DNA from: Prorocentrum cordatum
Lineage: Eukaryota
Direction of reading: 5' to 3'
Assembly: GCA_963575745.1 (NCBI GenBank)
Contig: CAUYUJ010000259.1
Coordinates: 558,001-622,000 of the forward strand
DNA: 64,000 nucleotides
This document shows, one piece after another, positions 29,404 through 63,727 of the stretch. A program made the position numbers and the translations under genes. Positions within the stretch are counted from its first letter, which is position 1. Each line of letters starts with the position of its first letter. The notes beneath the pieces were generated by a model. The model searched no databases. It saw only the letters and a program-made list of their open reading frames with translations, and was not told where the DNA came from.

Positions 29404-29972
29404 ATGTTCACGCCAGCCTCTCTCGGCCATGGGCGCCGAGGAGCCTGCTGCCGGCGGGCGAGGTTCGAGGACGGCATCGACCGCTTCACGCTGAGGTTCG
29501 CAGACCCGATGCGGGAGGACGGCTTTGCTCACGCCCACAAGGCGCCCCTGTGCAACTACACGACGCTGGCTATGGTCGCCCTTGTCGCCTCCAGCTTCCT
29601 GGGTGGCCTGATCGCCCACAGGTTCTGGGACAACGCCCAGTACCCCACGGCGGAGGCGAGGGAGCTCAGCAGGTGGCAGCTGCGCATCGGCATGATGATG
29701 ACCACACCCTGCGCCCTCGCCCTCGGGTCTGGGATACTGCTGGCCAGGTATAATATCATCAGCACGCTTGGGTTAGAAATCATCGTCGTCTCTGCCAGCA
29801 CCTGCTACATGATAGTGATGGTCATCATCCCGAAGCACTACATGGCCCGACTCTTCGGCCACGGCGACCCCGAGGACATCTGGGGCGTGGACCTGGGCGG
29901 CACCGACGGCCAGACGGTACTGTACATCGACTGCGTGGTCACCGCCTTGCACCTGCTGCTGCCCATCCGCTG
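29404..29972 (+). CDS. Kinase gene exon 1 (N-terminus, TM helices)
   Basis: FTLRFADPMRE..., hydrophobic segments; GA donor at 29973. Confidence 0.8.
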
Positions 29973-30340
29973 GATGCCGGAAACTGGAACGTATACATTA
30001 CCAGTGGCGGGTTGTCTTTCAATCCCAGGATTTTTCGAGGGTCGTGGACGACGTCGGGGTGGTGTGGTGTATACTAGTTGTCCCGTTGTCCCGGGGAAAA
30101 CAACGCCAAAGGTATACACCAGGATCCCGCATACACCAGGATCCGTTCTCCTGTGCGAATCAATGCGGGGCCGGAAAAAGCGTCGGTGTACAGTTCGGCT
30201 CCTCAGGATGATCCTCTTCCCCATGGAGGTCATCGCCGTCCTGGCCTACACGGTGCCCGCGCTGCTGCTCGGCAGTCCTGCCATGAACATCCGAGGAAGA
30301 AACAACGGCATAGGCACAAACATTCGGAGGTCCGCTCCGA

Positions 30341-30398
<58 letters not shown>

Positions 30399-33300
30399 CC
30401 ATCACCATCACCATCAGCATCATCAGCATCATCATAAACATTATCAGCATCAGCAGCATCATCAGCATCAGCAGCATCATCAGCATCATCTTCATCATCA
30501 TCACCATCATCATCCCCATGATTATCACCATCATCATCCGCTCACCATTCCAATCCCTACGCCTGGCTATCATTCCAATCATCCTCCGCCTACATGCCCT
30601 TCCTGTGGATCGGCACTGTGCCTCCTGGCGCGCTCCGCGCGCCTCAGCAGGGGAGGTCCGGCGCCGACCTAAGAAACCCGCGTGGACCTTGGGAAGCTCA
30701 CGTTCGGCACTGTGCCTTCTGGCGCGCTCCGCGCGCCTGGGAGGGAAGGTCAGGCGCCGATCTAAGAAACCCGCGTGGACCTTGGGAAGCTCATGCTTCC
30801 CAAACCCCAGTCGCCATGATGTTTTGTTACGACCTCCACCCCCCAGTGTCGGGCCGGACGAGAGGGTCCGGACGAGAGAGCAGGATAGGGAAATCTTCCC
30901 TATCCGTCCTTTCGCACCTCCCCTCGAGGGGATAGGGACCTTCCCCTATCCTTATCCTGCCCTACTTCCCTATCCCACCCTTTTTCCCCACCCTACCCTT
31001 CCCCTACGAAATTTGCCCTGCAGGGCAAATATCGTACACCCCCCTCTGAGGGGGGTGGGGGGGGGGTCACTTGCTGCATGCAGCTGGCCTCGGCCCGGCC
31101 GCCGGGCCCACTCCTCGATAACATGGGCGCCCCTCTCGGCCCCAGGAGGCTCGAGGCGCTGGGGAGTCCAGCCACGGGTGTGCTGATCCCCCCTCTTGGA
31201 CGCCCCCCTCTTGGCCGCCCCCGATGCTGGTCGACCTAAACGGTGTGTTGGCGATTCCGTGGGCCGTAGTCGGTTTGACGACGTTTTCCAGCAGAGGCGG
31301 ATTGAAGAAAAAGCGAGGGAAAGCGACGACAACACTAAACCGAGAAACATTGTTTGCGTCGATCCCTGCTTCTGCTGCTGCTGCTCCTCCTCCTCCATGC
31401 CTTTCCCTTATGAGTACATATATATATATATATATATATACAGATCATCCCTGTCGCACCCCAGGGCCGGTCGAAAGGGCGGGCTGGGCGTTTCGCTTGA
31501 TACTTCCTCACCGTTTATGATCCTGCAGCTCAGAAATTGGCAACAGTTTCACAGATGGAGGGCGGGCCGCTTCAAAATCTGGCTCTCTCTTTCGCGCCGC
31601 GCACATCCGTTGTAAACACTTGCAAGAAGTTGAAAGATTGAGGGCAGGTCGTTTCCAAAATGTGGCTCTCGTTTCAGCGCCGCGCACATTCGTTTCAAAC
31701 ATTTCGCACACAAGTTTCACGGATTGAGGGCAAGTGGTTTTCAAAGTGTGGTTCTCGCCTCAGCGGCGCGCAAATTGGTTTGAGATAGTTGCACGAGTTC
31801 ATTGTGGTTCTCGCCTTGATGGCGCGATCATTCGTTTTGAATGTGCAAGAGGTTCACGGATTGAGCGCGGGTAGTTTTCAAACGATGGTTCTCGCTTTGG
31901 CGTTCCGCACATGGTTGTTTTACTTTTGCACCAGTATCACGGGTCGAGGGCGGTTTCTATTCAAAATTTGGTTTTCGCGTTAGTGCCGCGCACATACGTT
32001 CCAAATATTTGCAAGGGGTTAATCGGTTCTCAGAGTTGACGTACCAGGTATGGTGCGTTGTAAGGATTCCGGATTGTCAGGGCCCAGTATTTACGTTGTT
32101 CTAGGTGTTGAAATCCCAGGGGTGGTGTTTTGGTACGATTCAGGATCGCCTACACGTAACAGTCAGGTTAGCTCGTGGCGTTGAAGTTCTCAGAATGGTG
32201 TTTGGGCACGTTTCAGGACTTTCACACGCTTGTCCCCCAACGGGGCTCATCTTTCAGTGGAAATGAACCCTTGTAGGGGCCTGTGAAGAGTGAGCTAGCA
32301 GGGAGGGTGTATTCCAACATCGTTGCTGGGTCTTGAGTTTGCTCTTCTCCCCCCTCCTCCTGTTCGTCCTATCTCGTGTGCCTCGGCTTGTGAGGACCCC
32401 CCAGACGCTTGTGCCGTTCTTTTCTTCCTCCAACATGGTGCCCTACAATGTCATGGGGCTCTTCCGGTAGCAAACCGTGGGAGCCTGGTACACCCTCGTA
32501 CTCCAGTCTGTTCAGTCCAGAGTGCACTGGCGCCGACTCGCGTCTGCCAATCGATGAGACAGCGCCGGTGCAGCGCCCATGGAGCGTCGACTCCGCATCG
32601 TATGAGCGCCGATTCGCACGAGCCAACAAGACATGGCGCGGGACACCCAGGCCAAGGTCCACAGGCATCCCAGGCCGCGGTTCACAGCATGAGCTTGCTT
32701 GTTGCAGGTCGGCCTGTGCGGTGTTCCCGGTCTGCCCAGCGACGCTCCGAACCGCGACGTCATCGGGTCACGAGGGATGGCTTGAGAGGGAAGGCGTGGG
32801 ACGGGGCCAGGACGAGGACAAGTCCGTTCAAGCGCGTTTCAGAACTCTCTCACAGCGTTCCATAGCGCTCGGAGCAAGCCGCGGCGCCCGAGACATCCTA
32901 CAAAGCCGCCAGATTTCAGAGATCCTCGATGAATCCCCACGCGATGTTAGATTCGTCCTGGCTTCGTCTCAGATGTCTTGCAAGGAAAAAACACATGCTA
33001 TGTCGGCCACGCGCAGATGGGGGTAGACGGGAGGGGGGGAGGCTTCTCATAACACTCCTACTTCTTGGAAGGCGCGGGCTTTATCTATAGATGTAAGGCA
33101 GGCATCTTCTAAGAAGCAGCCTCGTTCTAAGAAACAGCTTCCCTTCCCAGCCAGGAGCCAGATTAAGGGGAGCCAGTTAGAAATTGAGCCCCGCTGCCCA
33201 AAACATGGTCGGAATCACAAAAACAGGTCTGGCGTAGCTAGTGTTTTTCGGGTGACGGCAGTTCTGGTTTGGGCCAAGCGCCGGAGGCCTCGGGGAGAGC

Positions 33301-36300
33301 TCCCCGCGTGCGGAGGCGCACGCGGGCCGCGATCGCCAAGACGTCCCTTGGCGGGTGGGGGAGGAGGGAGAGGGAGGAGGAGGAGGGAGGAGGGAGGAGG
33401 AAGGGGAGGAGGAGAAGCGCGTAGAGGAGGAGGAGGAGGAGGAGGAGGAGGAGGAGGAGGAGGGAGGAGGTGGAGGAGGAGGAGGAGGAGGAGGAGGAGG
33501 AGGGGAGGAGGAGGAGGGGGAGGAGGGTTGGCAGTCCCCCGGTACACATCGCTAGACCAGGTCCCACCCAAGAGCCAGTCCTGCCAACGCCCGACCCCGA
33601 GCGCGCCGCCGGAGACGGCTTGGGAGGCTCCCACGGGTTGCCGCAGAAGGCTCCTGCTGCTCACGGTCTTCGCGGCCATAGGGCGGCGGTCCTTCGAGAG
33701 GCAGGAGCCCAGTGTCGTGTAACCCATCCCCATCCCCATCCCCATCCCCATCCCCACCATCCCCACCACCCCAGATATGCGCCTCGAAGCTCGAAGGGAA
33801 CAGCCGATGACCCCATCAAGGGAGATAAATCGGCCAGTGGTGCCCAGGCCACGCCCGTGGGGATAGTCTAGGCCTTCTAGATGGGGTCGGAGTAGATGGG
33901 GTCGGAGGATCGCGCCGCATCGGCGATACATCGCCGATGCGGCTCGATGCGGAGCCCGATTTCTCCACCGACGTCGCCGATGCGTCGCCGACTTCGGCGA
34001 TGCATCGTCGGTGCATCGCCGATGCATCGCCGATGCATCGCTGATGCATCGCCGATGTATCGCCGATGCAGCGCGATCCTCCGACCCCATCTACTCCGAT
34101 CCAATCTAGGAGGCCTCTAGATAGGGATCGGTTAAACGATGCTCAGGAGCGCCTGCTGTTCGCGGGGCTCCTGCTGGAGAAGCAGATGCGTTTCCAGGCC
34201 GAGTTCGAGCTGTCGAAGCTGGGGAAGCTGGGCAGCCGCGAGGCGCGGAGGAGGAGCAGCTTCCAGAGGAGGAGGGGGCTCCCAGACTTCGAACCGCCAA
34301 AGGACTTTCGTTTTGGTCCCCCCCCCTTGTTCTCTTCGGCGGTGACTGGGACTGGTCCTAAAACCTCCTCCTCCCTCCCTCCCTCCCTCCCTCCCTCCCT
34401 TACTCCCTCCCTCAGTCCCTCCCTCCCTCCCCCCCCCTCCCTCCCTCCCCCTCTCCCGTGTTTCTGGCACCGAGGTTTGCTGCCGCAATCCTGGGTAGCC
34501 GTCCCGCCCCCACAAGAGGAGGCAGACTGGTGGTCTGAGGGAGTCGAGGTTTTCGAAGATAACTGCTTCGGCGTGGGCTCTCCGTTGGCCCCCCTGTGCC
34601 TTTTCGGGGACGCGAGCGGGGGCGAAGATACTTCCGATCCCAGGCTCCGCAGAGTAGGGTGTGGAATTGCACAGTATTCTGACATTTCAGATAATATGCA
34701 GCTTGTTGCTTCTGTTTGGGGAGGCCTCCCTGGGCCCGTCCAGACAGTTGCCAGGGGTGAACTTTTCAGTTTCTTATCAGCGCTGATCGGTGCTGATGGT
34801 GTCACGCTCTATACCACAGATAATTCCAGTGTGTGCTCAGGATGGTATTGCGGGCGGGCCTTCGCCCCAGAGGGGGAGAACGCGGACCTTTGGTATCAGG
34901 TAGGTCAGGTGCTCAGACGAAAACCGACCTTATCCTGCACGGTCCTTTTTGTTCACTCCCACCAGGAGGCCCGAGACGTACTCCAGGGTAAAGCACCTCT
35001 GTATTTGACGGTAGGTAATGCAGCTGCTGATAAGTTGGCCGAGGCAGCGGCTCGTTTAGTACGCATCCCAGCCTCTGATAGATCGAAGGTTTTCTTGAAT
35101 GAGAAGATGGCTTTCGCCGTCCGCATGCGTATTTTACTGGCCACAGTCGAGACTTTAAAAGCCGAGGCCGCCCTGGCGGCCGAAGAGCCCCGAGGAACCC
35201 GTGTCAGGAATCCAGGGCCCAGGCCATTAGCGCCTCTGGTTTGTAAAGAGTTTTCGACCCTGCATACGCTGTCTGAAAACGGTCTTTCTTGTTTGAAGTG
35301 TAGGAGCTCCACCACTAAAGGTATGCGCAAGTTTTGGTTGGAAACCCCATGCTTTGACCTGAGGGCTATAGATGGCGTTTTGCTCAGACCGCCCCCCCGT
35401 TGCAGGGTGCACATCTGTGGGGGGTGGGCTGACGACAGTCACACATTACAGTTTCACGCTGGGCTGGGGATTTGGTTCTGTGGCACTTGTGGAAGTTTTG
35501 CGGCCCAACAGTTGGCCCAACTCGGAAAGAAGTGCGACGGCAGAGCCACAGGTAATCGTGCTGATTATTTAAAGAATATTGAACGGGGGATCTGGCCTAA
35601 AGCTTATAGCAAAGCTGACAAGGCCAGAAGAGCGGCTCGTTCTCTTTAATCGTCATCGTAACCGACACAGTCGCAATATCCGTAACTCCGTAACTCCCTC
35701 CCCCTTTCCCTCCCTCCATCTCCTCCTCCTCCTCCTCCTCCTCCTCTTTCCTCCTCTTTCCTCCTCCTTCTCCCCCCACATCTGGGGCCATGGCGGTCGT
35801 CTGCTTGCAGACTGCAGCCGCCAGGGCTTTTTTGATGATGGTCCATCAATCCCTCCTCCTCCTCCTCCTCCTCCTTCTGGACTTCTCCCCCCTAAGGAAT
35901 GGCATGAGAAGAAGATGGAGGAGGAGGAGGAGGAGGAGCAGGAGGAGGAGGAGGAGGGAAGGAGGAACAGGAGGAAGAGGAGGAGGAGGAAGGAGGAGAA
36001 GCAGGAGGAAGAGGAGGAGGAAGGAAGGGGATGAGGAGGAGGATAAGCCGCGGAACAAAATAATTAGCTACCACCTATTGTTGGGAACCCAGTCCTTCGA
36101 CAAGGCAGCCGGAATAATGTTAATTGTTTATCCTCTATTTGGGGGGGGGGTCAAGATAATTTTTCAGGGGTAGTCAAAGGATGAAAGGGCTCCCACACAG
36201 CTTCTTGTCGTTCTTTATCATGTTGGTGGGGCCTTCTGGGAGGCCGTCGTCGCCACCGCTGGATGCGCCCCACAGTTCTGGTCAGAGCGCAACCTTGGAG

Positions 36301-39300
36301 CTGTCCTGTGAGTGGGGGTATCGGTAGCTCCTGGCTTCCGCAGACATGCTCGCGCCGTGGAAAACAACAGCCAGGCGCGAGGTGTCTGACCGGGTTCGGC
36401 ATCCAGGGGCCTTCGCAGGACCTCGGGACGGTCAGCGAAAGCGACTCGCGATGAAGCGCCGGTCACGGACACGGGGTCGGGATTTCTGGGGACCGCGCAC
36501 TGCAAGCACCAGGACGTTGCATGCCTGGTGTGCCGATGTCGCTGCTCGTTCTGGAGAGGCCCCGTCTCCAGGCCCTCAAATGGGGTTGAAGCAGACGAGG
36601 TCTTCGGATCGCGCCGCATCGCCAAGGCATCGGCGATGCGGCGCCGATGCATCGCCGACGTCGCCGATGCATCGCCGACGTATGGGCGACGTGTCGGCGA
36701 TACGGCGCGTTCCTCGGACCTCATCCTCTCGGATCCCCTTTGGGATGTCTCCACCGTCGCCGTGGCCGTCCTCCCTCCCAGGTCCTGCCCAGAGCGCACC
36801 CGGTGGCAGAGGGTCCGGGGAGCAGCGGGGTGCGTCGGCACCGACGTGGTTTCCCCCAAAGAAGGCCGCGGTGGTGTCGGACCGCGGCTCCGACGAGGTG
36901 TCGTGCCCGGGGACGACCATCCGGGTGTTGTTCGGGGTTTCGGGGGCGGCAAAGAGGGGGGTGATGAGTAGGGGTGGGTGAATAGCATGGCACGGGCCAT
37001 GGTATTTCCCCAGATTTCATGGCGCCTCTTCTTATTTCAATACGTCCCTGGCCACCCCCCTGGGCCGCGCACATGCCGCCGGCCATGATTTGCGCCCCTC
37101 CCCCTCTTGGACGCCCCCCTCTTGGCCGCCCCCGAGCATTGTCTTTACCAGCCTGGAGCAAATCCCTATCCCTATGGTTGGTATCATCTTACCTCGATGC
37201 CGATCTTGAGGAGTCCCTCAGTTTCTGATGGCGCATACCTATGATTATGATTTTCCAACCTACTTTAGCTTTGATCACCAGAAAGAATTTCGGGCACCGG
37301 AAAAGTACCGAAACTCTAGTGTGTTCGCCTTTCGGGCCCTGGGAGACGCTCGTCCGACGTTGTTTCGACATTGTTTCGACACTTTCTTGGGTGCTCGAAA
37401 TTCTTTCTGGGATGTGGTCCTTAAGTACGATGGGAGCAACATCACCTTCTGATTGGTATCATCTTTCCTCGATGCCGATCTGAAGGATTCCATCAGTTTC
37501 TGAGGGCGCATCCCTCACATGGTCTACATGGTCTTTGGCTTGTCAGTCTCAGGGGTAAGGATATGTTCGGGGCTGGTTACTGTCCTGGTCAAGGGTGCCC
37601 CTGGTTTTTGGCTCTCTTTTGAAGCTCTCGGCTCTCAGGGCCTTCTTGGTTGGTGGCCTCCAAACGGTGTGATTACCAATCCGTTTGGGAAGTCAGTGGA
37701 GCTTCGGGGTCACAACACGAATTTGGGAAGCGGGGTGTTCTCCGAGGATGTCTCGGGCGGTTGGGGCCCCCAGAGTCCCAAGACCGTGCGGTGACGGACC
37801 GCGCGGTGAGGACGTTGGAGATTCCGAGATCGCCACGCGGTCCGCCACCACACGATTTTGGGACGCCCCATATTGGCCTCGTGAGGGGTGCGTTGGAGGC
37901 CATCTGGGCATCTATGGGGATCCTGGGGACACCTTTGGGCCAGGACCACTCCAAGCAACGCCCGAGCCATGAGCGCGGCGGCCTTCGACGGTGGCGCGGG
38001 GCATGCGTCCCTGGACCAGATCCGCTCCATAGGCCAGCGGGAGCACTGGCTCATCTCGGAGGAGAAAACATGCATACACATATACTTTCGGAGCTCCGCT
38101 ACCCGTCCCTCGTTTTTCGCTCCTTCGGTGCCTCATGGTATGCCCTCGTCGCCGCGGCACGATTCGCCTCGAAATCCTGGTCCAAGGGCACCCAAGGAGA
38201 GTCCCGCAGAGTACCAGTATCAGTACCAGCCTCGGATCGGCGCTGGGGCCCCCCTTGGCGGCGCCTCCGTCTCGCCCTCGGTGCGGTCCCCGCGTGCCAA
38301 AGGAGGGGTGGCCCAGCGCCGACCCGAGAGATCCAGCGCGCAGCTCCGAGAGTGTATGTTTGTGCCATGGTTTGTTCCTCCATCATCGGCAGCGGGGAGG
38401 TGGAGCTCTTGGCTGACAGGGTCCTGGGCGTCGGCGGCTTCGGCATCGTCGCCGCTGGCCTGTACCACAACACCCTCGTGGCGGTGAAGGCGCCGAAGCA
38501 GGACATCCTGAGGCTGGCCCGACCAAAACGTTGCTCTGGCAATGTCGTGGATAGCTTCCGTCTACTTGCTCTTTCCGCTCTGGGGCACCCCATTTGCCAG
38601 CCAAGACTTGGGAGTTGCGCCAAAGCGCTCGGCAACCGGTCGGACCGTTTTCGTCCTCGAACGCCCCGAACACGCAAACGGGACGCACGCGAAAAGAGCG
38701 CCGGTTTGGTCGCCCCCCCGCGCGAGGCGGGGCGCCATGGGCTCGAGCCTGCCCGAGCTCTGCAACGAGCTGAGGGTCCTGCGGCGCATCCGCCATTGAT
38801 GGGCCTGTCCTCCACCACCACCACCATGAGTTGGAGGGGGGAAGAAGGAGGAGGAGGAGGACGACTAGGAGGAGGAGGAGGAGGTGGAGGAGGACCCCCT
38901 CCCCCCTCCAACTTGTGGTGGTGGTGGCAAACGGGCCCATCAGCCATCCCAACATCGCCTTCCTGTACGGGGCGTGCATGGACGCGGCCCTCAGCAAGCT
39001 GAGCCTGGTGCTCGAGTTCGTGGACGGCGTGCCCCTGGGCGCGTTCGTCAGCGGCATGCACCCGCACGCGGAGGGTCCAGAGGCCAGGGGCCCGCCGGCC
39101 AGCGCCTCCGCGCGGTGCCTCATCGTGTCCGACATCCTGAACGTGCTCCGCTACCTCCACTCGAGGCTCAAGCAGTGGCGAAGCGTCTCGGCTCGCCTAC
39201 AGGCCTACCAAAGGAACTGTTCTAAGACCCTTTTGTGGTCTCAGCGACGTGCTCTCAGAACATTTCTGGCTGGGAAAGGCTTGTTTTAGCACAGAAGGCT

Positions 39301-40025
39301 TGCGTTCTGAGAACATTGTGTTTTTCTTAGGACATGTTGGGGTTCTAAGAGCATTCCGTGGTAGGCCTGTAGACATGCCGGGACGGTCGGTCCCTGCTCA
39401 AGAGGCAGCCTGTCATAGTCCACGGAGACCTGAAGGACTCCAACGTCTTCGTGGAGGAGCGGCGCGGCAGGACACCGCTTTTGTTTGTCTCCCTTGGCGA
39501 TGCCCCGGGCGTGCCTCACAGTGGTACGGGGGGATGGGGGGGAGGGCGCCCGCCACGTCACGGTTCCCGCCAGCGGCGTCTGGGAGTGCTCATGCCAACT
39601 CCCAGACGGGGCCGGCGCGAGTCGCGAGGTGACAGGAGGGGTGCGTGAGGCGGGGCGGGTCACGGCAGTGATCGCGAGCATCGCAGGATCCTGCAGGATC
39701 CTGCAGGATCTCGCAGGATCCTGCAAGGCCCGACGGACCCGGGCTTGGGTTGACCCGGGCCAGTGCGTCCCCGGGAGTGATAGAACAACGGGCTCTATAG
39801 GGGGGGCCAGATCTGGTACCACGCCAAGCTGCTCGACTTCGGGCTCTCGCGCCTCGTCACCCGGCGTGCCGTGCCCCTCGGCGGCACGCTGCGCTGGATG
39901 GCGCCCGAGCTGCTCACGGGGGTGGCCGTCCCCCCCGCCGCGGCCGCCGACCTGTACTCTTTCGGGCTGCTGGCCTACTTCATCGTGACCGGGCGCCGTC
40001 CTTTCGAGGGCGCGAGCAGGGACAG
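29404..40025 (+). CDS. Multi-pass membrane protein kinase (TKL/Raf-like domain), at least 12 exons; 3' exons (subdomains X-XI) not securely located
   Basis: The spliced product has ~6 hydrophobic helices, then RFQAEFELS, EHWLIGSGEV, LGVGGFG, VAVK, NELRVLRRIRHPNI, HGDLKDSN, DFG, GTLRWMAPE, ADLYSFG, TGRRPF. All exon phases are consistent with no stops. Start codon uncertain. Confidence 0.9.
30207..30290 (+). CDS. Kinase gene exon 2 (TM helix)
   Basis: cag|G ATG ATC CTC.. = MILFPMEVIAVLAYTVPALLLGSPAMN. Confidence 0.85.
30343..30540. repeat. (CAT)n microsatellite inside intron 2
   Basis: Direct inspection. Confidence 0.97.
30610..30793. repeat. ~92-bp tandem duplication
   Basis: tcggcactgtgcc...ctaagaaacccgcgtggaccttgggaagctca occurs twice. 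Confidence 0.9.
31480..32260 (+). repeat. AT-richer dispersed repeat, copy nested in intron 2
   Basis: Homologous to 26765-27250. Confidence 0.75.
32437..32457 (+). CDS. Kinase gene exon 3 (21-nt micro-exon, MVPYNVMG)
   Basis: Lies exactly between the right TIR/direct repeat of intron 2 and the left direct repeat/TIR of intron 3; keeps the frame. Confidence 0.8.
33650..33704 (+). CDS. Kinase gene exon 4 (LLLLTVFAAIGRRSFERQ)
   Basis: AG|G acceptor, GA donor. Confidence 0.85.
33870..34116. mobile_element. Palindromic MITE with AGGCCT termini and CATCGCCGATG core; copies at 36570-36750 and 45649-46124
   Basis: ~45-bp TIR aggccttctagatggggtcggagtagatggggtcggaggatcgcgc. Confidence 0.85.
34147..34242 (+). 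CDS. Kinase gene exon 5 (ERLLFAGLLLEKQMRFQAEFELSK..); 3' end at 34242 (GC donor) or 34218
   Basis: Direct repeat CAGGAGC at the acceptor; coiled-coil-like sequence. Confidence 0.8.
34457..35700 (+). mobile_element. 5'-truncated LINE 3' end encoding RNase H and C-terminal Cys motifs, inside intron 5
   Basis: FGDASGG..DPRLRR, QTVARGEL, TDN, NADLW, VHSH, GNAAADKLA; open frame to TAA 35649; visibly lower GC than its flanks. Confidence 0.88.
36865..36914 (+). CDS. Kinase gene exon 6 (AAVVSDRGSDEVSCPGT)
   Basis: AAG|G acceptor; GA donor with direct repeat GACCA shared with 37944. Confidence 0.7.
36942..37132. mobile_element. MITE with TIR GGGGCGGC.AAGAGGGGG; related pieces at ~31190-31222, ~41577-41660 and ~46125-46310
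   Basis: The ends are reverse complements. Confidence 0.7.
37655..37868 (+). repeat. Dispersed ~215-bp repeat (second copy 45664-45880, nested in an AGGCCT MITE)
   Basis: Shared gttctccgaggatgtc.cgggcgg.tgggg..gtccca..ccgtg.ggtgacggacc..caccacacg.ttttgggac. Confidence 0.8.
37944..38055 (+). CDS. Kinase gene exon 7 (..SLDQIRSIGQREHWLI)
   Basis: cag|G acceptor; pre-kinase WxI motif. Confidence 0.85.
38388..38512 (+). CDS. Kinase gene exon 8 (subdomains I-II)
   Basis: VLGVGGFGIV..VAVK. Confidence 0.92.
38727..38796 (+). CDS. Kinase gene exon 9 (subdomain III, alpha-C Glu)
   Basis: ELCNELRVLRRIRH; GC-AG intron 38513-38726 with direct repeat GAGGC. Confidence 0.9.
38948..39165 (+). CDS. Kinase gene exon 10 (subdomains IV-VIa)
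   Basis: PNIAFLYG..LVLEFVDG..LRYLHS. Confidence 0.92.
39405..39470 (+). CDS. Kinase gene exon 11 (catalytic loop)
   Basis: IVHGDLKDSNVFV; GC-AG intron 39166-39404. Confidence 0.92.
39801..40025 (+). CDS. Kinase gene exon 12 (subdomains VII-IX); 3' boundary approximate
   Basis: AKLLDFGLSR..GTLRWMAPE..ADLYSFG..TGRRPF; GA-AG intron 39471-39800. Confidence 0.92.
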
Positions 40026-40319
40026 GGTGCCAGTCCTCAAGATTGGTTTGTATGCCACACCCTCCCCACCCCGGTCAGATTCCACCACCCGCGGCCACAG
40101 TCAGTATTATACAACCACCACGCCCCATGCAGATACGTCTAGACGCTTCGCGTAACCCCACCAGCCTGTCGCGGCCCGACTAGTGTTCGGGCGGCTTTCG
40201 ACCTGCTTCGCGAGCCCGCAGACCAAAAAAGTAACCCATCAGCCCATCCAGAAACGATGCCCAAGGGAATTGCCTCGATCAGGGAAGTGGGCGGCACACA
40301 GAGGAAGGGTCCCCCAGTG

Positions 40320-43300
40320 GAGGCCTCTTTGAGCGTCTTGGGGGCCTCTGGGCGGTCCAGGACGCTTGTAGAGCGTCTTGGGTGCCTCGGAAAGCTTCTT
40401 GGGGCCTCTTGGAGGTTTCTGGGGAGCCTCTTGGAGGCCGTCTAGGCGCCTCTTGGGGCCTCTTAGGGCCTCTTGGGGCCGTCTGGGCGCCTCTTGGGGT
40501 CCTCTTGGGAGCCTTGGGAGCGCTCTTGGAGCCTTCTTGGGCCATCTTGGAACCATCTTGAGACCTCGGATGGCCATCGGAAGCGAAAAGGCGAGACAGC
40601 CAAACATTAGCCTGGCGACGGGCCCTACCGCAAGTATAAATCTAATCTTCGCCCGCGCTCCCTATGGGGCCACGAACCGTGTGAGGGGCGTGCCGACATG
40701 CGCGGCGGGGCACACAACGCGAGCGAAGACGGTAGGTCTGTGTGCGAGAGACTGAGAGCGCGTTTGTCTGATTGTGGATGGGTTTGCGCGCGTGAATCTA
40801 CGTGCGTAAAAAATCGACGCCCATGTCGGCGCGCCTCTCACGAGGATCGCGCCTGTTTCCTTCCCGTTATTTAATCGCTTCGCTCATTCCGCCGGCCCGT
40901 ATTGTGCCATCGCAGGCGTTTGCTTGCGCGTTCGTGGCCTCTTGGAGCCTCGGTGGGGCCGTTTGGGGCCTCTTGGCGCCTCTTTTTAGGCCTCTTGGAG
41001 AACTCGGGAGGCCTCCAGGGGGCCTCCTGAGCTCTCGTGACGGTCTCTTGGGGGGCTTTCGGCGGGCTCTTGGCGGTATTTGTTGGTCCTCTTGGGGCCT
41101 GGGGCCTGACGTTGTTGGTCCTCTTGGGGCCTCACGGGAGCTTATTGGGGCGTCTTGGGGGTGTCTTGGAGAGTCTCTTGGGGCCTCTTTCGGGGTCCTG
41201 GGCGCCTTCTGGGGCGGAGGGCTCGATTTTTCAGTTCTCGGTTTCCTTCTTGAGCCCCTCTTGGGCCTGTGAGGACCCGCTGTTCAAGATGCACATCGCG
41301 GGGGCGACTAAAGACAGGCGTGGTGATGCTTCGTTGTTCTTGGCATCGTTCTATCAGGGGCACTTCAAGGACCTGCCGAAAGAGGCTGCCCGAGAAGTGC
41401 GAGATCCTGTGTCCGTCCACAGCCCTGCGGCTGACGAGACCTGCCGTGCTTGCCGCGGGGAGCCGTGCACGAGCGGTGTGGCGCCAGGACGTCCGACTTG
41501 CCCGAGGGTCGGCGGACGCCTCGCCGACCGCCTCTGGCCTGATATCAAGATCGATGGGCCACGAGGCGATACGCGCGGGCGGCAGAGAGGGGGGTGATGA
41601 CTAGGGGGACGTCATGGCGGGGGCCATGATATCTCCCCAGATTTCGTGGCGCCTCTTCTGATTTCACTGCGTCCCTGGATCTCCCCCTAGGCCGCGTCTT
41701 GGGGCCTCTTGGTCCGCCTTGGGCAGCACTTGGGCCGTCTGGGAGGCGCTCTTGGGCCGCTCCGGGGCCGTCTTGGGAGCCTCGTGGGCCGTCTTGGAGC
41801 AGTCTTGAAGGCCTCTTGAGCCCTCTTGGAGCGTCCGGAAGCGAAAAGGCCAGAACGCCAAAAAACATCGAACAAAACCAATGAAAATCAACGATGTTGG
41901 CAACTTGGGGCCCTCTTCGGAGGCCTCTTGGAAGGCCCTTGGAGCGTCTTGGAGGCCTCTTGGGCTGTCTTGGGGCCATCTGGGGCGTCTTCGGGCGATC
42001 GTTGGCCGTCTCGGGCCTCTCTTGGACCGTCTAGAAAGCTTCTCGGGGCCCTTTTGGACCGATCTGGAGCCCTCTTGGACTCCGAAACAGAACTCCGGCA
42101 TCTCTGACCCGACCTTGCCGGGGTACTTTTCGCCCGGGGACCCCCAGGGGCCGCCCCGCGCGCGCGAACTAGAAATATTGTTAACCAGGCGCCGGAGATC
42201 TTAGCACGCCCTGGCCCGTTGGGCCGGCGAATTTTTCTCCTTGTTTGTCCGTGCGCGCCCACGTCCAAGGGTGCGGGCGCGGCGCCGCACGGAGCCCCCG
42301 CGACTCGCGCAGGTCGCCCCGAAGGGGTCCCGGCGACGCGCGCGGGTCGTCCGCTGCGCGGGGCAGAGCGAGCGAGCAGGCTGGCTCCCGCCTGGGATGC
42401 GCGGCCCGAAAGCGGCCTCAACACGTCGAATACGACGAAACACTTCCAGAAACCGAAAGTCGCTGCTATGCGAACTCTTCCACTGGGCCGCCACACGATT
42501 TCCGCCACAGAGACCTTAGACGGAGCTCCCTATGGGGACACGAAACGTACGAGGGGCGCAATGGGGCCACGAAGTGTGTGATGGGGTGTGCCAGAATGGG
42601 TCGGCGGCGCCATGCGGGCTGCGCCAGTGTGACCGTCGGTGGAGCTACCTATGGGGCCACGAAGCGTGTGAGGGGTGTGCCAAAATGGGGCGGCGGCGCC
42701 ATGCGGGCTGCGCCTTTAGGGCCTTAGGTGGAATTTCATTATGGGGCCACGAAACGCTGTACTGAGTGGATGAAACGCAGGGAGGAGGTTGGGTGGGGGA
42801 GGAGGAAAAAGGAAGGAGGAGGAGGAGGAGGACGAACACGCGGGGACCGTCTCTTCAAAACGAGGACCCAACACCACAGGATGGTAGGGACAAACATTGA
42901 TATTCGCAAGGTGTTGGACAGATGTTGGCCTGTTCGGGGCCTCCTGGGGGGGGTTCTCTGGCCACTTGGAGCCGTCTTGGAACGGTCTTGGGGCCTCTTG
43001 GAGCATCGTGGGGGCAATCTTGAGGCATCTTCGGATCGATTGGGCCATCTTGGGGGTCATCCTGGGCTCCCCCAGGCGCTCCCCCCACCCCCCAGGAAAC
43101 CAACACGTGGCCAAACCAATCGTAAAATCAGTGATTCTTTGGTTTACGCCGCGCCGCCGGCCCCTTGGGGTTCCTGGTAGGTCTCTCGGGGGCCTCCTGG
43201 CAGCACTTTGAGACCTTTTGGGGGCCGTTTTGGGGCCGCTTTTGGGCCTCTGGCCCCTTGGGTGCTTCTTGGGGGCTGGATCTCGCGCCGCGCCTCTCGG

Positions 43301-44040
43301 GGGCCTCTGGAAGGCAGGTTTGGAGCCACTTGGGAGCAGTTTCGGAGCTTCTGGGGGTCTTTTTGGGGCCTCCTGGGTGCCTTTTGGGGGCTCCTTGGGG
43401 CGTTCTGGGGGCCTCTTGGGAACCTCTGGCGAGCCTCTTGGGGCACTTTTGGGGCCCCGCCCCCTTGGGCTCCTGGGGGCGGAAAGCTAGATGTTTTGAA
43501 TGTTTGGTCGCCCTCTGGGGCCCCTCTTGGTGCTGTCTTGGAGCCCTCTTGGGCCGTCTTGGGGACCTCTTGGGCCGTCTTGGGGCTACATTGGGCCGTC
43601 TTGGGGCCGTCTCGGGGGCCTCTTGGGGCTGTCTTCGGGGCCTCTTGGGCCGTCTTGGAACGTCGGGAAGCCGAAAAGGCGAAAAGGCAAAAAACCACAA
43701 AAAAAACACAATGGAAAATCAACCATTTTAGCCCCTCGGGGCCCTCTTGGGGGTCTTGTTTGGGACCTCTGGGGCTGTCTTGGAGGCCTCTTGGCCCGTC
43801 TTGGGGCCATCTAGGGCGTCTTGGAACGCTCGTTTAGCGTCCCCGGGCCCTCGTGGGCCGCCTTGGAACCCTCTTGGGGCCTTCTTGGCCCATCTTTGAG
43901 CCCTCTTGGGCCCGGAAGAGCCCGTGACGCGCTCGTCGGGCCCCCCCCCCCCCCAAATCGACCGGGCCGGGCTCCCGGGGGAGGGGTTTGGGGAGGGGGG
44001 GGGCATCTCACGCGCCGATGATCCCCAAGGGGCCGGCGGA
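40320..44040. repeat. Blocks of degenerate GGGCCTCTTGG/GGCCGTCTTGG satellite-like dispersed repeat, with interspersed elements
   Basis: 10-11-bp periodic motif; a conserved tail ccaaatcgaccgg.ccgggctcccgggg..catctcac.cgccgatga.ccccaagggg at 43950-44040 recurs at 61430-61520. Confidence 0.85.
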
Positions 44041-44620: not shown

Positions 44621-46514
44621 GTGCCATGCCACGGCGTGCAATGCAATTCTAGGTTGCGTTCCGTTGCGCGATGCCATGCCTTCAGCTGAAGCTGTGATAC
44701 GCAGCGCTTAAGTGCCGCGTCGTGCTATGCCAGGCTACGCTTAGATTTTCAACGCCATGCTATGCAATGTTACGTTCGGGGCCGCTGTGCGATATCATGC
44801 TTTGCGTTGCAAAGCTTTGTGATGCAATTCTTCACCACGCCACGCCACACCATGCTGTGACATACTACGCTTTGCGGTGCTCTTCTACGCCATGCCACGC
44901 CGTGCTCTACAATGCATCGCGTACCCTTTCGGGATCATTGCCCTGGTTGACATCCGACTGTGCGAACAGAGAGGGGATCTACGCCATGGTAAGGGATGGG
45001 AGGGAGGGGTGGGATGTCAGATATGACGCGAAGGCACTTAGCTTGTCGTCCTCTTCCTCCTCCTCCTCCTCCTCCTCCTCCTCCTCCTCCTCCTCCTCCT
45101 CCTCCTCCTCCTCCTCATATTCCTCCTCCTCCTCCTCCTCCTCATCCGCGTCCTCCTCTTTCCTCCTCCTCATATTCCTCGTCGTCCCCTCCTCCTCCTC
45201 GTCGTCGCCCTCCTGTCCGCTCAATCGTCGCGGCACCCAACCCAATGCCGCGGCGATTTAACTCCGCAGTTAAGTCTGTGCCTGGCTGGGACGCGCGGCG
45301 TGGGATTCACTTAACTCCGAAGTTAATTCGTGTACTAGCTGGTGCGTCCGCCAGCTTGGCGGCGACTTACCTCCGGAGTTAAGTTTTTCCGCGGGGTGGC
45401 CTTTACCCCGGAATCAGGCCGACTTAACTCCGGAATTCAGTCTTGGATAACCTCCCGGTTTCCGTCGCTTCCCTCCTCCTCCTCCTCCTCCCTCCTCCTC
45501 TTCCTCCTCCTCCTCCTCCTCCTCCTCCTCCTCTCCTCCTCCTCCACCTCCATCTCCTCCCCCCCCTCCCCCTCCTCCACCTCCTCCTGTTCGGATCGCC
45601 GGCGGCCCCAGGGAAAACCGTGCACCCCCTTTTGGTCGGCCAAGATCCGGGCCTCCCAGACCAGGGGACCCCCAAACGGGGTGGTGACCACACCGTGTGG
45701 TGAGTCGGTGGGGATTCGGAACCGCTGCGCGGTCTTGGGATTCGGGTCGTTCTCCGAGGATGTCACGGGCGGCTGGGGCCTCCAAGGTCCCAAAGCCGTG
45801 TGGTGACGGACCCTGTTGTTATGTCTTTTGGGATTTCGAGGTCACCGCCGGGTCTGTCACCACACGGTTTTGGGACCCCCAACAGATGGGGTCGGAGTAG
45901 ATAGGGTCGAAACGTCGCGCCGCATCGCCGATGCGTCGGCGATGCGGCTTGATGCCGAGCCTGTCTCTCGCCACGCCGACGGCGCCAACGCATCGCCGAC
46001 ATCGCCGGTGCATCGCCAATCCATCGTCGATGTATCGCCGATGCATCGGCGATACATCGGCGATGCATCGGCGATGCGGCGCGATCATTCGACCCCGCTT
46101 ACTTCGAGCCCATTTAGGAGGCCTCGGCAAGAGAGGGTGAGAGGGGTGATGACTATGTGTTGGTATCATGGCTGAGCGGAGATCTTCTTAGCTTTCATGG
46201 CCCCTCTTCTTCTTTTGAATGCGTCCCCCTGAGCCCCCCCTCGTCCGTGCAAATGCCTCGGGCCATGATTTGCGGACCCCCCTTGGGCGCCCCCCTCTTG
46301 GACGCCCACAGCCCCTCTGGCAGCGTCACGATTCGAGCACCCACCCCTTGGGACCCCCCCCTGACCCCCTTCTGGGCGTCAACCCTCTGAGGCCCCCTCC
46401 CCCCCGGCGGGGAAAGGATCAAAGAGAATGGGCTTCCTTTCGACTCAGCTACGACGTTGCTCGATGTCGGTTTGTCTGGTGCGCTTGAGGAGGAGGGCCC
46501 AGGGGAAGGGAACG

Positions 46515-59989: not shown

Positions 59990-61730
59990 TCTTCGGGGCT
60001 CTCTTGGGCCGTCCTCGGCGCCTCTGGAGCCGTCTTGGCGCCCTCTTGGGCTGTCGTGGGGCCCTCGGGGAGGCTTCTTGGACCGTCTTGGGGCGTCTTG
60101 GGGGCGTCGGGGGCCGTCTGGAGGCCGTCTTCGGTGTTTTTGATCGCTCTGGGACCTTCTGGGACCATGTGGAGCTCTTTGGGAAGCCACTTGGAGCGCT
60201 CCTGGAGCGCTGTTGGGGCCGATTTCGGAGCCCTCTTGGGCCGTCCTCGGCGCCTCTTGAGCGCTTGGCGCCCTCTTGGGCTGTCGTGGGTCTTTTTGGT
60301 TGTTTCTTGGACCGTCTTGGCGCGGGCTTGGAGGGCTCCGGGGCCGTCCAGGAACGGGGGGCACCCCAAAAGGCGCACGCGCGAAGCAATTTACGTTTTA
60401 CGAGAGGAACGGGCGATTTTGTGCGTCTAGAGGCCCTCTTGTGGCGCCTCGTGGATGTCTCTTGGGGCGTCTTGGGGGCCGTCTGGAGGCCGTCGTCGGT
60501 GTTTTGGATCGCTCTTGAACCGTCGGGGACCATGTGGAGCTCTCTGCGAGGCCACTCGGAGCGCTCCTGGAGCGTTCTTGGAGCCGTTTTCGGAGCCCTC
60601 TTGGGCCGTCTTGGACGCCTGTTGGCCCGTCTTGGGGCCCTCTAGGGCTACGTGGGGAACCCTCTTGGAGGCTTCTTGGGCCGTCTGGGAGCGGGTTTGG
60701 GGGGCTCTGGGGCCGACTGGGAGCGGGGGACACACCAAAAACGCACGTTTGAACCAATATACGTTTTACGAAGGGAAAGTGCGATTTTTTGCGTCTAGAG
60801 GCCCTCCTGGGGCGAATCTTGGAGGCCTCTTGGGGCGTCTTCGGGGCCTCTGGAGCCGACTGGAGGACGTCGTCGATGTTTTTGATCGCTCTTGGACCGT
60901 CTGGGACCATGTGGAGGTCTCTTGGAGGGCACCTGGAGCGGTCCTGGAACGCTCTTTGGGCCGTTTCGGAGCCCTCTTGGGCCGTCTTGGACGCCTGTTG
61001 GCCCGATCTGGGGCCCTCCGAGGGTATGTGGGGGACCCTCTTGGAGGCTTATTGGGCCGTCTGGGAGCGGGCTTGGGGGCCTCTTGGGCCGTCTGGGAGC
61101 ATCGGAGAACCCAGAAGCCGAACTTGTGAAAAATGTACGCTTCATGAAGGGAATGAGCTAATTTTTGCGTCGAGGGACCCTCTTGGAAGGCATCTCGGAG
61201 GCCTCTGGGGGACTCGTGGCGACCTCGTGTGCCGCCGAGGAGGCCTCGTAGCCCGTCATTGGGACACCTTCGGCGTCTTGGCGAGCTCGTTGGGCGCCCC
61301 GGAGCCATTTCGAGGCCACCAAGGGAGTCCCTGCACGATTTTCACGAGGTTTTGCACGATTTTCGGGAGCGGATGGCACCTCCGGGGGACTCCGGGGCCG
61401 TCCGGCGGATTCGGCCCGACCCCCCCCCCCCCTCCAAATCGACCGGACCGGGCTCCCGGGGGAAGGGTTTGGGGAGGGGGAACATCTCACACGCCGATGA
61501 ACCCCAAGGGGTCGGCGGATCTTGGTATTGTCGCCGGGGCCTCTTGGAGCGGAGCGTCTTTGGTGCCTATGGGGGGCCTCTTGGGGTCCCTTGGGGGTCT
61601 CATGGGACCCTCCTGGGGGCATCCTGGGAGCCTCTTGGGGGCCTCTTGGGGCCTCTTGGCCACCTCTTGGGGCCCCGCCTTGGGAGCGTTCGTGGGGCCG
61701 TCTCGGAGGAGATCGATCAAAGAAGGGGGG
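59990..61730. repeat. GGGCCTCTTGG satellite-like repeat with ~360-bp higher-order units
   Basis: ttttgatcgctct..gaccatgtggag recurs at ~60140, ~60500 and ~60880. Confidence 0.88.
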
Positions 61731-63727
61731 TCTTAATTTGCGCCGCCCCCCCAAGAGGCCACAATGGTGCCACAACCCTTGTAAAACCCTCGCCGAGGCC
61801 GTTTTGGACGCCCTGACCGCTCGCGGAACTCCCCGTCCAGTTCCAGGGGAGGGGGGAGGGGGAGGGGTAAACACCTCCCCGAAGGGGAAGAAGGGGGGTG
61901 GAAGAGGAAACACCCTAAACCACCTACGCCCTAAAGGGCTGGTGGGCTCGTGTGTAAACCAACCCACGACCAGGACCCTCGCCCACTCCCCAGGTCTTCT
62001 CGGTGTAACTACCTAATACGACCACCCTTCGGGTGATAAGCTGTTTCGGGGTGGGTGGTGGGAAGGGACCAACTGCTGGCAAACGCGATGGTTGTGATCA
62101 TGATGATGTTGGTGACGTGCCCTCGAGTTAGCGACGACGCGTGATGTCGACGTTGCGCTGCGATGCAATGTCACTATCGTCCTCGCGTTCGATCTCACTC
62201 GATCGATCCCACTATCGACCTCACCGCCAGTCTTTGTACCAATGGATATTGCGATCGATCCCATGAGCGATCTCACACTGAAGGGCGCTGAGTACGATGA
62301 GGACACCATCGGGACACCAACGAGCCGATTCAGTGCCACCGTCACCGCGCTGTCATGTGATAGATGCTTGCTGACCGTGGTGGTTGACTGCTGATGGCGA
62401 TGTGATGGTTCTTCTGCACGCGTGCAATCGTCTCCGAGTGCACTGCGCGCCAGTAGCCAGGGCGCTCCGTGAGCCTAGCTCTAAGCGTTCCGCTTGCTCC
62501 TGCGCGCTCCCGGCGCTCGCTCGCCCGGCTCGTGGCTGGGTTGCCCAGAGCATCTGAAGAGTTGCCGGCCCGACACAACGCAGCTTGGGGCGAGCTCCAC
62601 GAACACCGATCTGAAGCCAGCGGAATGGTGGAAGCGCTGCTCCAACTGGCGCGACCCCCCCCACATACTCGACATCACTGGAAGAGCCCAGCGGCAGGCC
62701 GCTGGCAGAGAGTCTGGCGGCGAGGGGGGTGCTGGCGAAGAGGCGCGCGCTTCCCGCGGCACCCGCAGATCTGGCGAGGATGCAGAAGAAAGCATCATGC
62801 GTCTGTCGCCAAGCGCGTTCCACTAGTCGCAAAGTTACTACTCGCAAGCGTCCGGAAAAAACATAAGCCTGCCTGTGTGCAATTCGTCGTACATCCCCTG
62901 AGGCGGATCCAGGCCATTTGCGAGTAGCTACTTGGCGAGTGGTGGAGCGCGCTTGTCTAGTCTGGCTTGGTTGGGCAGCAAAACTGCGGGAGCAGTGGTC
63001 GCTGTGGTCGCGATGTTGGTCGCACTGGCCGCGGTGGTTGCATTTCGCGATGAGCGGTGGCCAGGCCGAGGACGCAGACAACCCTCTGAACCGATCCCAC
63101 AGTCGATGGTGAGGTCGATCCCACTGTTAGACCTCACCATGGGTCCCCGAACACTGATATTTCAGGGTCGATGGCACTCAATCGAGAACACCCGACCCCA
63201 CCATCGATCCCAATATAGATCTCACTGTAGATCTCGGTATCGATCTCATGATCTATATCAGTATCGGCTTTGCGATCGATTCAACGATCGACCTCACTAT
63301 CATTGTCACAATTGATTTCACAATCAATGTCACAATCAACCTCGCTCTCGATAACACTTTGGGTCTCACTATCCATCCCATTCTCACCGTCTCGTTATCG
63401 ATCTCACTGTCGATTTCACTCTCGATACCGAGGTGGAAACTCCCGGCCACCGCCGTCCGCTGCCGACAGAACACCGACGGGACACCAACGGGACACCAAC
63501 GGGGCAACAATGGGACACCACAGGACACCACGGCGAGACACCTTGGGTCACCGCGTGCCCACCGGGGGCGCAGGGGCCCGCCATTGCATCTGGACCGCCC
63601 TACCGATGGCGTGGTCATTCCTCCCGCGCGCCCACGCAGCGTTGCCCCTGGCGCACGACACGAAAACGAAAACGAGCCCGACTTCCCGGTGTGGGGCTCC
63701 GCGATCTCACCCCCCAAGCTCCAATAC

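Follow-up and report, generated by a model that had tools for sequence, protein, structure and literature searches.

The introns of Amoebophrya sp. A25 and A120 have no fixed dinucleotides at their ends; they carry inverted repeats of 8-20 nucleotides (nt) and direct repeats of 3-5 nt over their borders, they form hairpins, and many of the introners among them are singletons, as described in the available parts of Farhat et al. (2021, PMC7789003). Here, a foldback element of similar anatomy is reported from the dinoflagellate Prorocentrum cordatum, in a stretch of 64,000 nt (assembly GCA_963575745.1, contig CAUYUJ010000259.1, positions 558,001 to 622,000) that will be called the window and in which all coordinates are counted. 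The element measures 146 nt (38797..38942) and interrupts the coding sequence of a membrane-anchored TKL-type kinase gene; together with one copy of the repeat that flanks it, GCCAT, it makes up 151 nt that are absent from transcript contigs. It probably represents a transposon-derived, non-canonical intron like those of Amoebophrya, the host in this case being a free-living core dinoflagellate, and a hairpin would define its cut sites.

The available parts of the literature searched describe for core dinoflagellates only introns with GT, GC or GA donors and AG acceptors, gene finders are set likewise, and no report of non-canonical hairpin introns in Prorocentrum or other core dinoflagellates was found there. 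Repeated sequences at dinoflagellate intron borders were noted earlier, always around AGG. The available text of Roy et al. (bioRxiv 10.1101/2020.10.14.339549) presents introner-like elements in Polarella glacialis and Symbiodinium whose GH..AG sites come from the target-site duplication (TSD) or from the element; class 12 has a 5-nt TSD of the form NAGGH or NNAGG, and class 14 the form AGGH. For P. cordatum itself, the genome paper (Dougan et al. 2023, PMC10666404), in the sections available, reports introner elements in 2.4% of the annotated introns; the definition asked for inverted repeats (8-20 nt) and direct repeats (3-5 nt) no further than 30 nt from the ends of the intron. According to the same sections, the gene models were built with GT, GC or GA donor settings, which left no way of modelling an intron with other borders.

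The element described here is bordered by two copies of GCCAT. The first (38792..38796) ends the sequence encoding ...RIRH and is, in one register, the last 5 nt of kinase exon B (38727..38796), which covers the helix C region and ends in ...NELRVLRRIRH. The second (38943..38947) directly precedes exon C (38948..39165), which runs from PNIAFLYGAC... to ...YLHSR; all these features, like the introns below, are on the forward strand. Both ends of the element are perfect 9-bp terminal inverted repeats (TIRs), TGATGGGCC on the left (38797..38805) and GGCCCATCA on the right (38934..38942). They form the tips of two 45-nt arms (38797-38841 and 38898-38942) with 73% complementarity, which rises to 93% over the inner 28 nt, and an (AGG)n microsatellite of 16.3 copies (38846..38894) makes up the loop and part of the inner hairpin. 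Folding of the RNA from 38792 to 38952 gave one long stem of -87.9 kcal/mol, against a mean of -66.3 kcal/mol (standard deviation 4) for shuffled sequences (z = -5.4; 0 of 200 equally stable). The hairpin has 30 end-to-end pairs, and the first of them, 38796/38943, lies at the boundary between repeat and element. The element thus has the features of a miniature inverted-repeat transposable element (MITE) or foldback transposon, that is, TIRs with a TSD, small size and no coding capacity.

The whole window was scanned for pairs of perfect 9-bp TIRs, separated by 40-600 nt, with a perfect 5-bp direct repeat immediately outside them. Three such structures were found, while 100 dinucleotide shuffles yielded 0.26 on average and never more than 2; the observation is therefore real and beyond chance.

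Within 38792-38947, the 151-nt cut can be placed in six registers, GC..CA, CC..AG, CA..GC, AT..CC, TT..CA and TG..AT, none of which offers a GT, GC or GA..AG pair. Hence, the excision cannot follow the ordinary dinoflagellate splice-site rule. The AT..AC borders of U12-type introns occur in none of these registers, and the CAG/CTG pairing motif of euglenid introns (+4..+6 with -8..-6) is absent in all of them. Exact removal gives ...NELRVLRRIRHPNI..., and every register restores ...RRIRHPNI.... The closest GC-AG cut that stays in frame, from a GC at 38784 to an AG at 38943 (160 nt), yields ...NELRVLRHPNI..., with three residues lost. The initial annotation of this locus, made from the letters alone, had described a 151-nt hairpin insert that splits the H-P-N-I motif with no canonical donor, with a symmetric TIR, a GCCAT duplication and pairing over about 45 bp, and had given the same registers, the same product of precise removal and the same GC-AG alternative deleting three residues of helix C; all of these statements were checked and hold.

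The evidence at the RNA level comes from public sequencing runs. The run search gave 24 runs and eight studies; 20 of the runs contained part of the stretch, the best of them with 0.34 of its words, and four were recorded as RNA. Four runs from four studies, all as Logan contigs, were aligned to 37000-40310: X17 is polyA RNA on record, the kind of X1 and X7 is unrecorded, and X9 was guessed to be RNA. Each run has one contig (432-487 nt) that differs from the locus in 0 letters; it covers 37967-38050, 38383-38509 and 38724-38791 and then continues from 38943, for 35 nt in X1 and X7 and for 90 nt, to 39032, in X17 and X9. The pieces are contiguous in the contig records, so there are no letters between the two sides of the joint 38791>38943, where 151 nt are skipped and 5 letters fit either side. 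The initial annotation had read the insert as removed exactly and without a canonical donor, and had named retention as a possible contrary outcome; the contigs of all four runs skip the insert and support its reading.

The same contigs also lack the introns 38051-38382 and 38513-38726, at the joints 38050>38383 (332 nt skipped) and 38509>38724 (214 nt skipped), each with 5 letters that fit either side. Further contigs show the joints 39162>39402 (239 nt skipped, 5 letters fitting either side) and 39468>39799 (330 nt skipped, 3 letters). The mean depth of the contig with the joint 38791>38943, compared with that of two contigs of downstream exons, was 25.9 versus 22.8/17.2, 35 versus 31.8/11.8, 20.7 versus 14.2/12.6 and 71.3 versus 55.7/53.7 in the four runs, depth being a single figure per contig and thus a weak measure. 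The depth in the bins from 38776 to 38997 is no measure of retention or of excised intron, because the microsatellite draws foreign contigs there and 38805-38902 was passed over by the aligner as a repeat. Parts of the aligned stretch that no contig covers are uninformative in both directions.

A second intron of the gene behaves in the same way. It measures 332 nt (38051..38382), it is bounded by TCATC (38051-55 and 38383-87), no register gives it a first G or a last AG, and over its whole length it folds into a hairpin of -160 kcal/mol (z -6.4). Since this second skipped hairpin without a canonical register is found in the same contigs, the behaviour is recurring and not that of a single odd site. 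The other RNA-supported introns have ordinary borders. Two are GC-AG introns with GAGGC at both borders, 38513..38726 and 39166..39404, where the repeat supplies both AG|GC splice sites; the third, 39471..39800, is a GA-AG intron with the 3-bp repeat AGG. When the five introns were folded, three proved to be end-to-end hairpins: 38051-38382, the 38797 element (z -5.8) and 39166-39404 (40-nt arms, 78%; z -5.6). The introns 38513-38726 and 39471-39800 were not (z -0.6 and -2.4). Therefore, two of the five RNA-supported introns lack a splice pair of the dinoflagellate type, and both are long foldbacks bounded by 5-bp repeats. Two more junctions were placed by homology only, E1/E2 with the repeat GGATG and E3/E4 with CAGGAG, both in a GA-AG register.

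Regarding the coding sequence, the kinase gene extends over 29464..40030 according to paralogue proteins of about 800 amino acids and to the transcript contigs; its C-terminal part was not found in the window. The frames of the traced exons are open and the kinase motifs are kept (G-loop, VAVK, HGD in HGDLKDSN, DFG and APE). The high G+C, the GC and GA donors and the 10-11-nt tandem repeats had at first suggested Emiliania huxleyi as the source, a reading rejected in view of the P. cordatum names of the public proteins. A protein search with exon C gave 14 matches, 13 of them named as P. cordatum and one, an unnamed relative, 94% identical; precomputed Pfam matches to PF07714 or PF00069 are present in the public model of the locus (P0002) and in all 13 other proteins. 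For the alignment, 12 of the 14 matches were used, with P0012 and P0013 omitted as near-duplicates that have the contig and the N-terminus in common with P0011. The column RRIRH|PNI is gapless in all 11 aligned paralogues that cover it, which bears out the standard alpha-C-to-HPNI spacing that the initial annotation had expected after removal. A regular expression for the RRIRHPNI spacing matched 10 of the 14 proteins; in P0011 the motif is spelled differently, and P0002 begins only after it. At the other junction, WLI-GSGEVE also agrees with the paralogues.

Among the systems compared, the introners of Amoebophrya are the closest match in anatomy. The locus has an RNA-supported intron without GT, GC or GA-AG borders (contigs, 4 of 4 runs), an inverted repeat within the 8-20 nt range that forms a hairpin (9 bp perfect, arms to 45 nt), and a direct repeat of 3-5 nt over the borders (GCCAT, 5 nt). 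As in Amoebophrya, there is no transposase and the borders are ambiguous within the repeat. On the other hand, Amoebophrya is a syndinean parasite, whereas P. cordatum is a photosynthetic core dinoflagellate that lives freely, the terminal motif here reads TGATGGGCC instead of TTA.. and TAT.., and the hairpin introns adjoin ordinary GC-AG and GA-AG introns in one gene, unlike in the Amoebophrya case used for comparison.

The elements of Roy et al. are similar in that a transposon with inverted repeats and a short TSD has turned into an intron. In fact, 38513-38726 and 39166-39404, whose GAGGC fits NAGGH, match that model exactly, as in the 5-nt-TSD class of Polarella, as far as the available text describes it. 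However, the 38797 hairpin (GCCAT) and the 38051 intron (TCATC) lack the GH..AG borders of that description. The introners of Dougan et al. come from the same species and were sought under the same definition by inverted and direct repeats as those of Amoebophrya.

Outside the dinoflagellates, the nonconventional introns of euglenids have variable non-canonical borders and a structure uniting their ends; their junctions often carry TSD-like repeats, and an origin from MITEs is suspected (available parts of PMC11282704, PMC3935182 and PMC4770533). The locus resembles them in its non-canonical borders, end-joining structure, junction repeats and MITE-like character, and differs in the missing CAG/CTG motif and in the unrelated lineage. 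The MITE-derived introns of Fritillaria borealis carry inverted repeats and non-GT-AG borders, mainly AG-AC and AG-AT, are efficiently removed and have been shown by experiment to be spliceosomal (PMC11282704, in part). They are likewise transposon-derived, with inverted repeats and without GT-AG, although the borders here are different ones. The introns of both groups may be regarded as functional analogues of the present case.

In the mechanism proposed for the kinase gene, a non-autonomous foldback DNA transposon (MITE-like) would have inserted into a coding exon and duplicated its 5-bp target GCCAT. The element and one repeat copy would then leave the message as an intron, by which the reading frame from before the insertion would be back. 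In the pre-mRNA, the long stem would set both GCCAT copies side by side at its base, and this structure may define the cut sites. The anatomy, the exact 151-nt joint in the contigs and the collinearity with the paralogues are direct observations; we infer that removal takes place in vivo at the RNA level and that the hairpin has a role in it. One candidate for the cutting is a spliceosome with relaxed dinucleotide needs, such as has been suggested in Amoebophrya and Fritillaria; the other is an endonuclease acting with a ligase, which is the suspected route for the euglenid nonconventional introns. Both options seem about equally probable.

This interpretation as an Amoebophrya-type intron has to be weighed against a number of observations that speak against it, some of them general and others in favour of the first two rival explanations below. 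In the first place, searches of the 64-kb window showed the element just once, with blastn matching only the GGA microsatellite elsewhere, and a 20-mer scan of metagenome contigs gave five loci, all of them chance matches of 20-23 nt without an adjoining hairpin. With these copy searches, membership of a mobile family is hypothetical. Moreover, the GAGGC repeat common to the introns 38513-38726 and 39166-39404 fits a selection for ordinary spliceability, which makes the two exceptions harder to explain. Furthermore, the RNA evidence consists of assembled contigs, which give presence and not proportions and from which rare variants are dropped, so the hairpin may be retained in some transcripts.

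Among the rival explanations, the first is that the transcripts come from another copy of the gene (a recent duplicate, a haplotype or another strain) free of both hairpin insertions, the copy in the window being silent or disabled. The genes of dinoflagellates are highly duplicated (PMC10666404, in the parts available), the contigs cannot tell which locus was transcribed, and the comparison rests on transcript contigs and protein sequences. Nevertheless, such an origin is unlikely, as the contigs agree with this locus in every letter over about 850 nt of exons, and the closest protein apart from that of the locus has 94% identity over exon C. Besides the truncated model of the locus itself, which forms a cluster of one member and one contig, no protein with 100% identity to exon C is present in a collection of 5.8 billion proteins. 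The supposed copy would need to lack two independent insertions and yet carry no substitution in its exons.

A reverse-transcriptase artefact would also produce the observed joint. In this case, the mRNA would keep the hairpin, the gene copy would be dead, with a TGA right after ...RIRH, and the enzyme would jump between the GCCAT copies at the foot of the stem while cDNA is made in vitro. Such template-switch deletions, or falsitrons, lack canonical sites and arise between direct repeats that a strong structure brings together (PMC10275267, in part), and the 38797 hairpin shows all these hallmarks. Because the repeats are the TSD, the artefact would restore the frame too, so that neither the frame nor the collinearity with the paralogues separates both readings. 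In addition, the family of paralogous kinases is large (the 14 matches), so the loss of one member would be tolerable. However, falsitrons are usually minor in-vitro products that vary with enzyme and protocol and would be missing from direct RNA reads, whereas here 38791>38943 is the assembled path in the four runs and four studies, with the contig unbroken through the joint, and the contig that bears it is no shallower than those of the downstream exons, weak as a comparison of one depth figure per contig is. The 332-nt insert is skipped as well, and its repeat copies would be too distant for one fragment if the Illumina libraries were prepared by fragmentation followed by priming. Finally, all exons are intact. 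For these reasons, the artefact is considered quite improbable.

If the spliceosome used the GC at 38784 as donor and the AG at 38943 as acceptor in the ordinary way, the kinase would lose three residues where helix C ends. The reading frame would be kept, and GC is the commonest donor in P. cordatum (51.4%, Table 2 of PMC10666404, seen in part). However, the contigs of the four runs use the 151-nt skip and 11 of 11 paralogues keep the three residues; the joint of this donor, which the initial annotation had named as a competing outcome, is absent from the 15 joints listed out of 42, although it could exist as a minor isoform. This removal is therefore very improbable. An assembly artefact, with the hairpin absent from the real genome, is hardly credible, since errors of long reads or assembly can create palindromes but the 5-bp TSD is clean, the arms are imperfect, two more foldback inserts bounded by 5-bp repeats occur in this gene and many further foldbacks in the window.

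Returning to the interpretation as a transposon-derived hairpin intron, the 38797 element would be a further case of an intron type already known. Hairpin-guided introns without fixed end signals have been documented so far in Amoebophrya, Fritillaria and euglenids, and for Amoebophrya and euglenids the machinery is so far a matter of proposals. Amoebophrya is an obligate parasite and hard to handle. If both non-canonical introns of the kinase gene are real, the phenomenon extends to a free-living dinoflagellate for which axenic cultures have been reported (available parts of PMC10666404), and tests for lariats or circles and with inhibitors would be feasible. The case also bears on how insertions of transposons into exons are tolerated and turn into introns.

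A broader proposal, which we regard as doubtful but worth stating, is that core dinoflagellates might have an RNA excision guided by hairpins and independent of splice sites, which would remove foldback transposons at their TSD whatever its sequence, possibly by a non-spliceosomal endonuclease-plus-ligase route. If this were true, foldback insertions into exons would be neutralised at once, and gene models restricted to GT/GC/GA-AG would be truncated at every such insert, as the public model is here.

The public model of the locus, P0002, one of the 13 P. cordatum matches, has 204 amino acids, is 100% identical and maps to 38978-39166 and 39802-40152. Its start is the first ATG downstream of the hairpin, so everything upstream is missing and the N-terminus is truncated. 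If both introns are real, it is for that reason that the model is cut short, and other P. cordatum models may be too. Its C-terminus is probably wrong as well, because the model continues beyond 40030, the point at which the transcript contigs depart from the exon. These are 408-nt contigs that run on for 149 nt outside the aligned stretch 37000-40310. The letters that follow 40030 are CA, so this donor too is possibly non-canonical, if its position is not shifted by a border repeat. The cluster of P0001 was set aside: its members are a 94% relative, on metatranscriptome-like contigs, and not this gene.

Regarding the paralogues, the models P0011-P0013, which lie on one P. cordatum contig, stop soon after APE, without the C-terminal region common to the other paralogues, and may be further mis-modelled genes. 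In the 5' part of the kinase gene, about 7-8 residues between ...SPAMNI and LLLLTVF... (30291-33651) are unaccounted for in comparison with the paralogues; they may belong to a micro-exon in the 3.3-kb gap or have been lost in a deletion specific to this gene. A spliced-leader motif had no match in the window with up to 3 mismatches.

As for other repeats, a stretch of 12 nt at the end of the hairpin agrees in 10 of 12 letters with a 12-mer of the intron 39166-39404, but this was rejected as chance, since the pattern has 7 matches in the window versus 6.78 expected. An Rfam search of 37900-39900 gave just weak microRNA-like matches, far under the gathering scores. The other two structures of TIRs with abutting repeats, 60332-60599 (CTTGG) and 61664-61757 (GCCAC), lie inside low-complexity repeat tracts and show no sign of split exons; open frames there mean little in such G+C-rich DNA (0.54-0.69 per 2 kb over the window).

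Another foldback, at 33870-34116, has 71-nt arms that are 93% complementary and lies in an intron flanked by the exons 33651-33707 and 34126-34221. Palindromic repeats of the CATCGCCGATG type form its core, and similar palindromes are found at 36577-36742 and 45886-46113. Downstream of the kinase exons, long tandem repeats of 10-11 nt with a consensus near TCTTGGGGCC occupy 40318-40560, 41729-42032 and 43361-43824, and tracts of this kind yield long spurious open frames on both strands.

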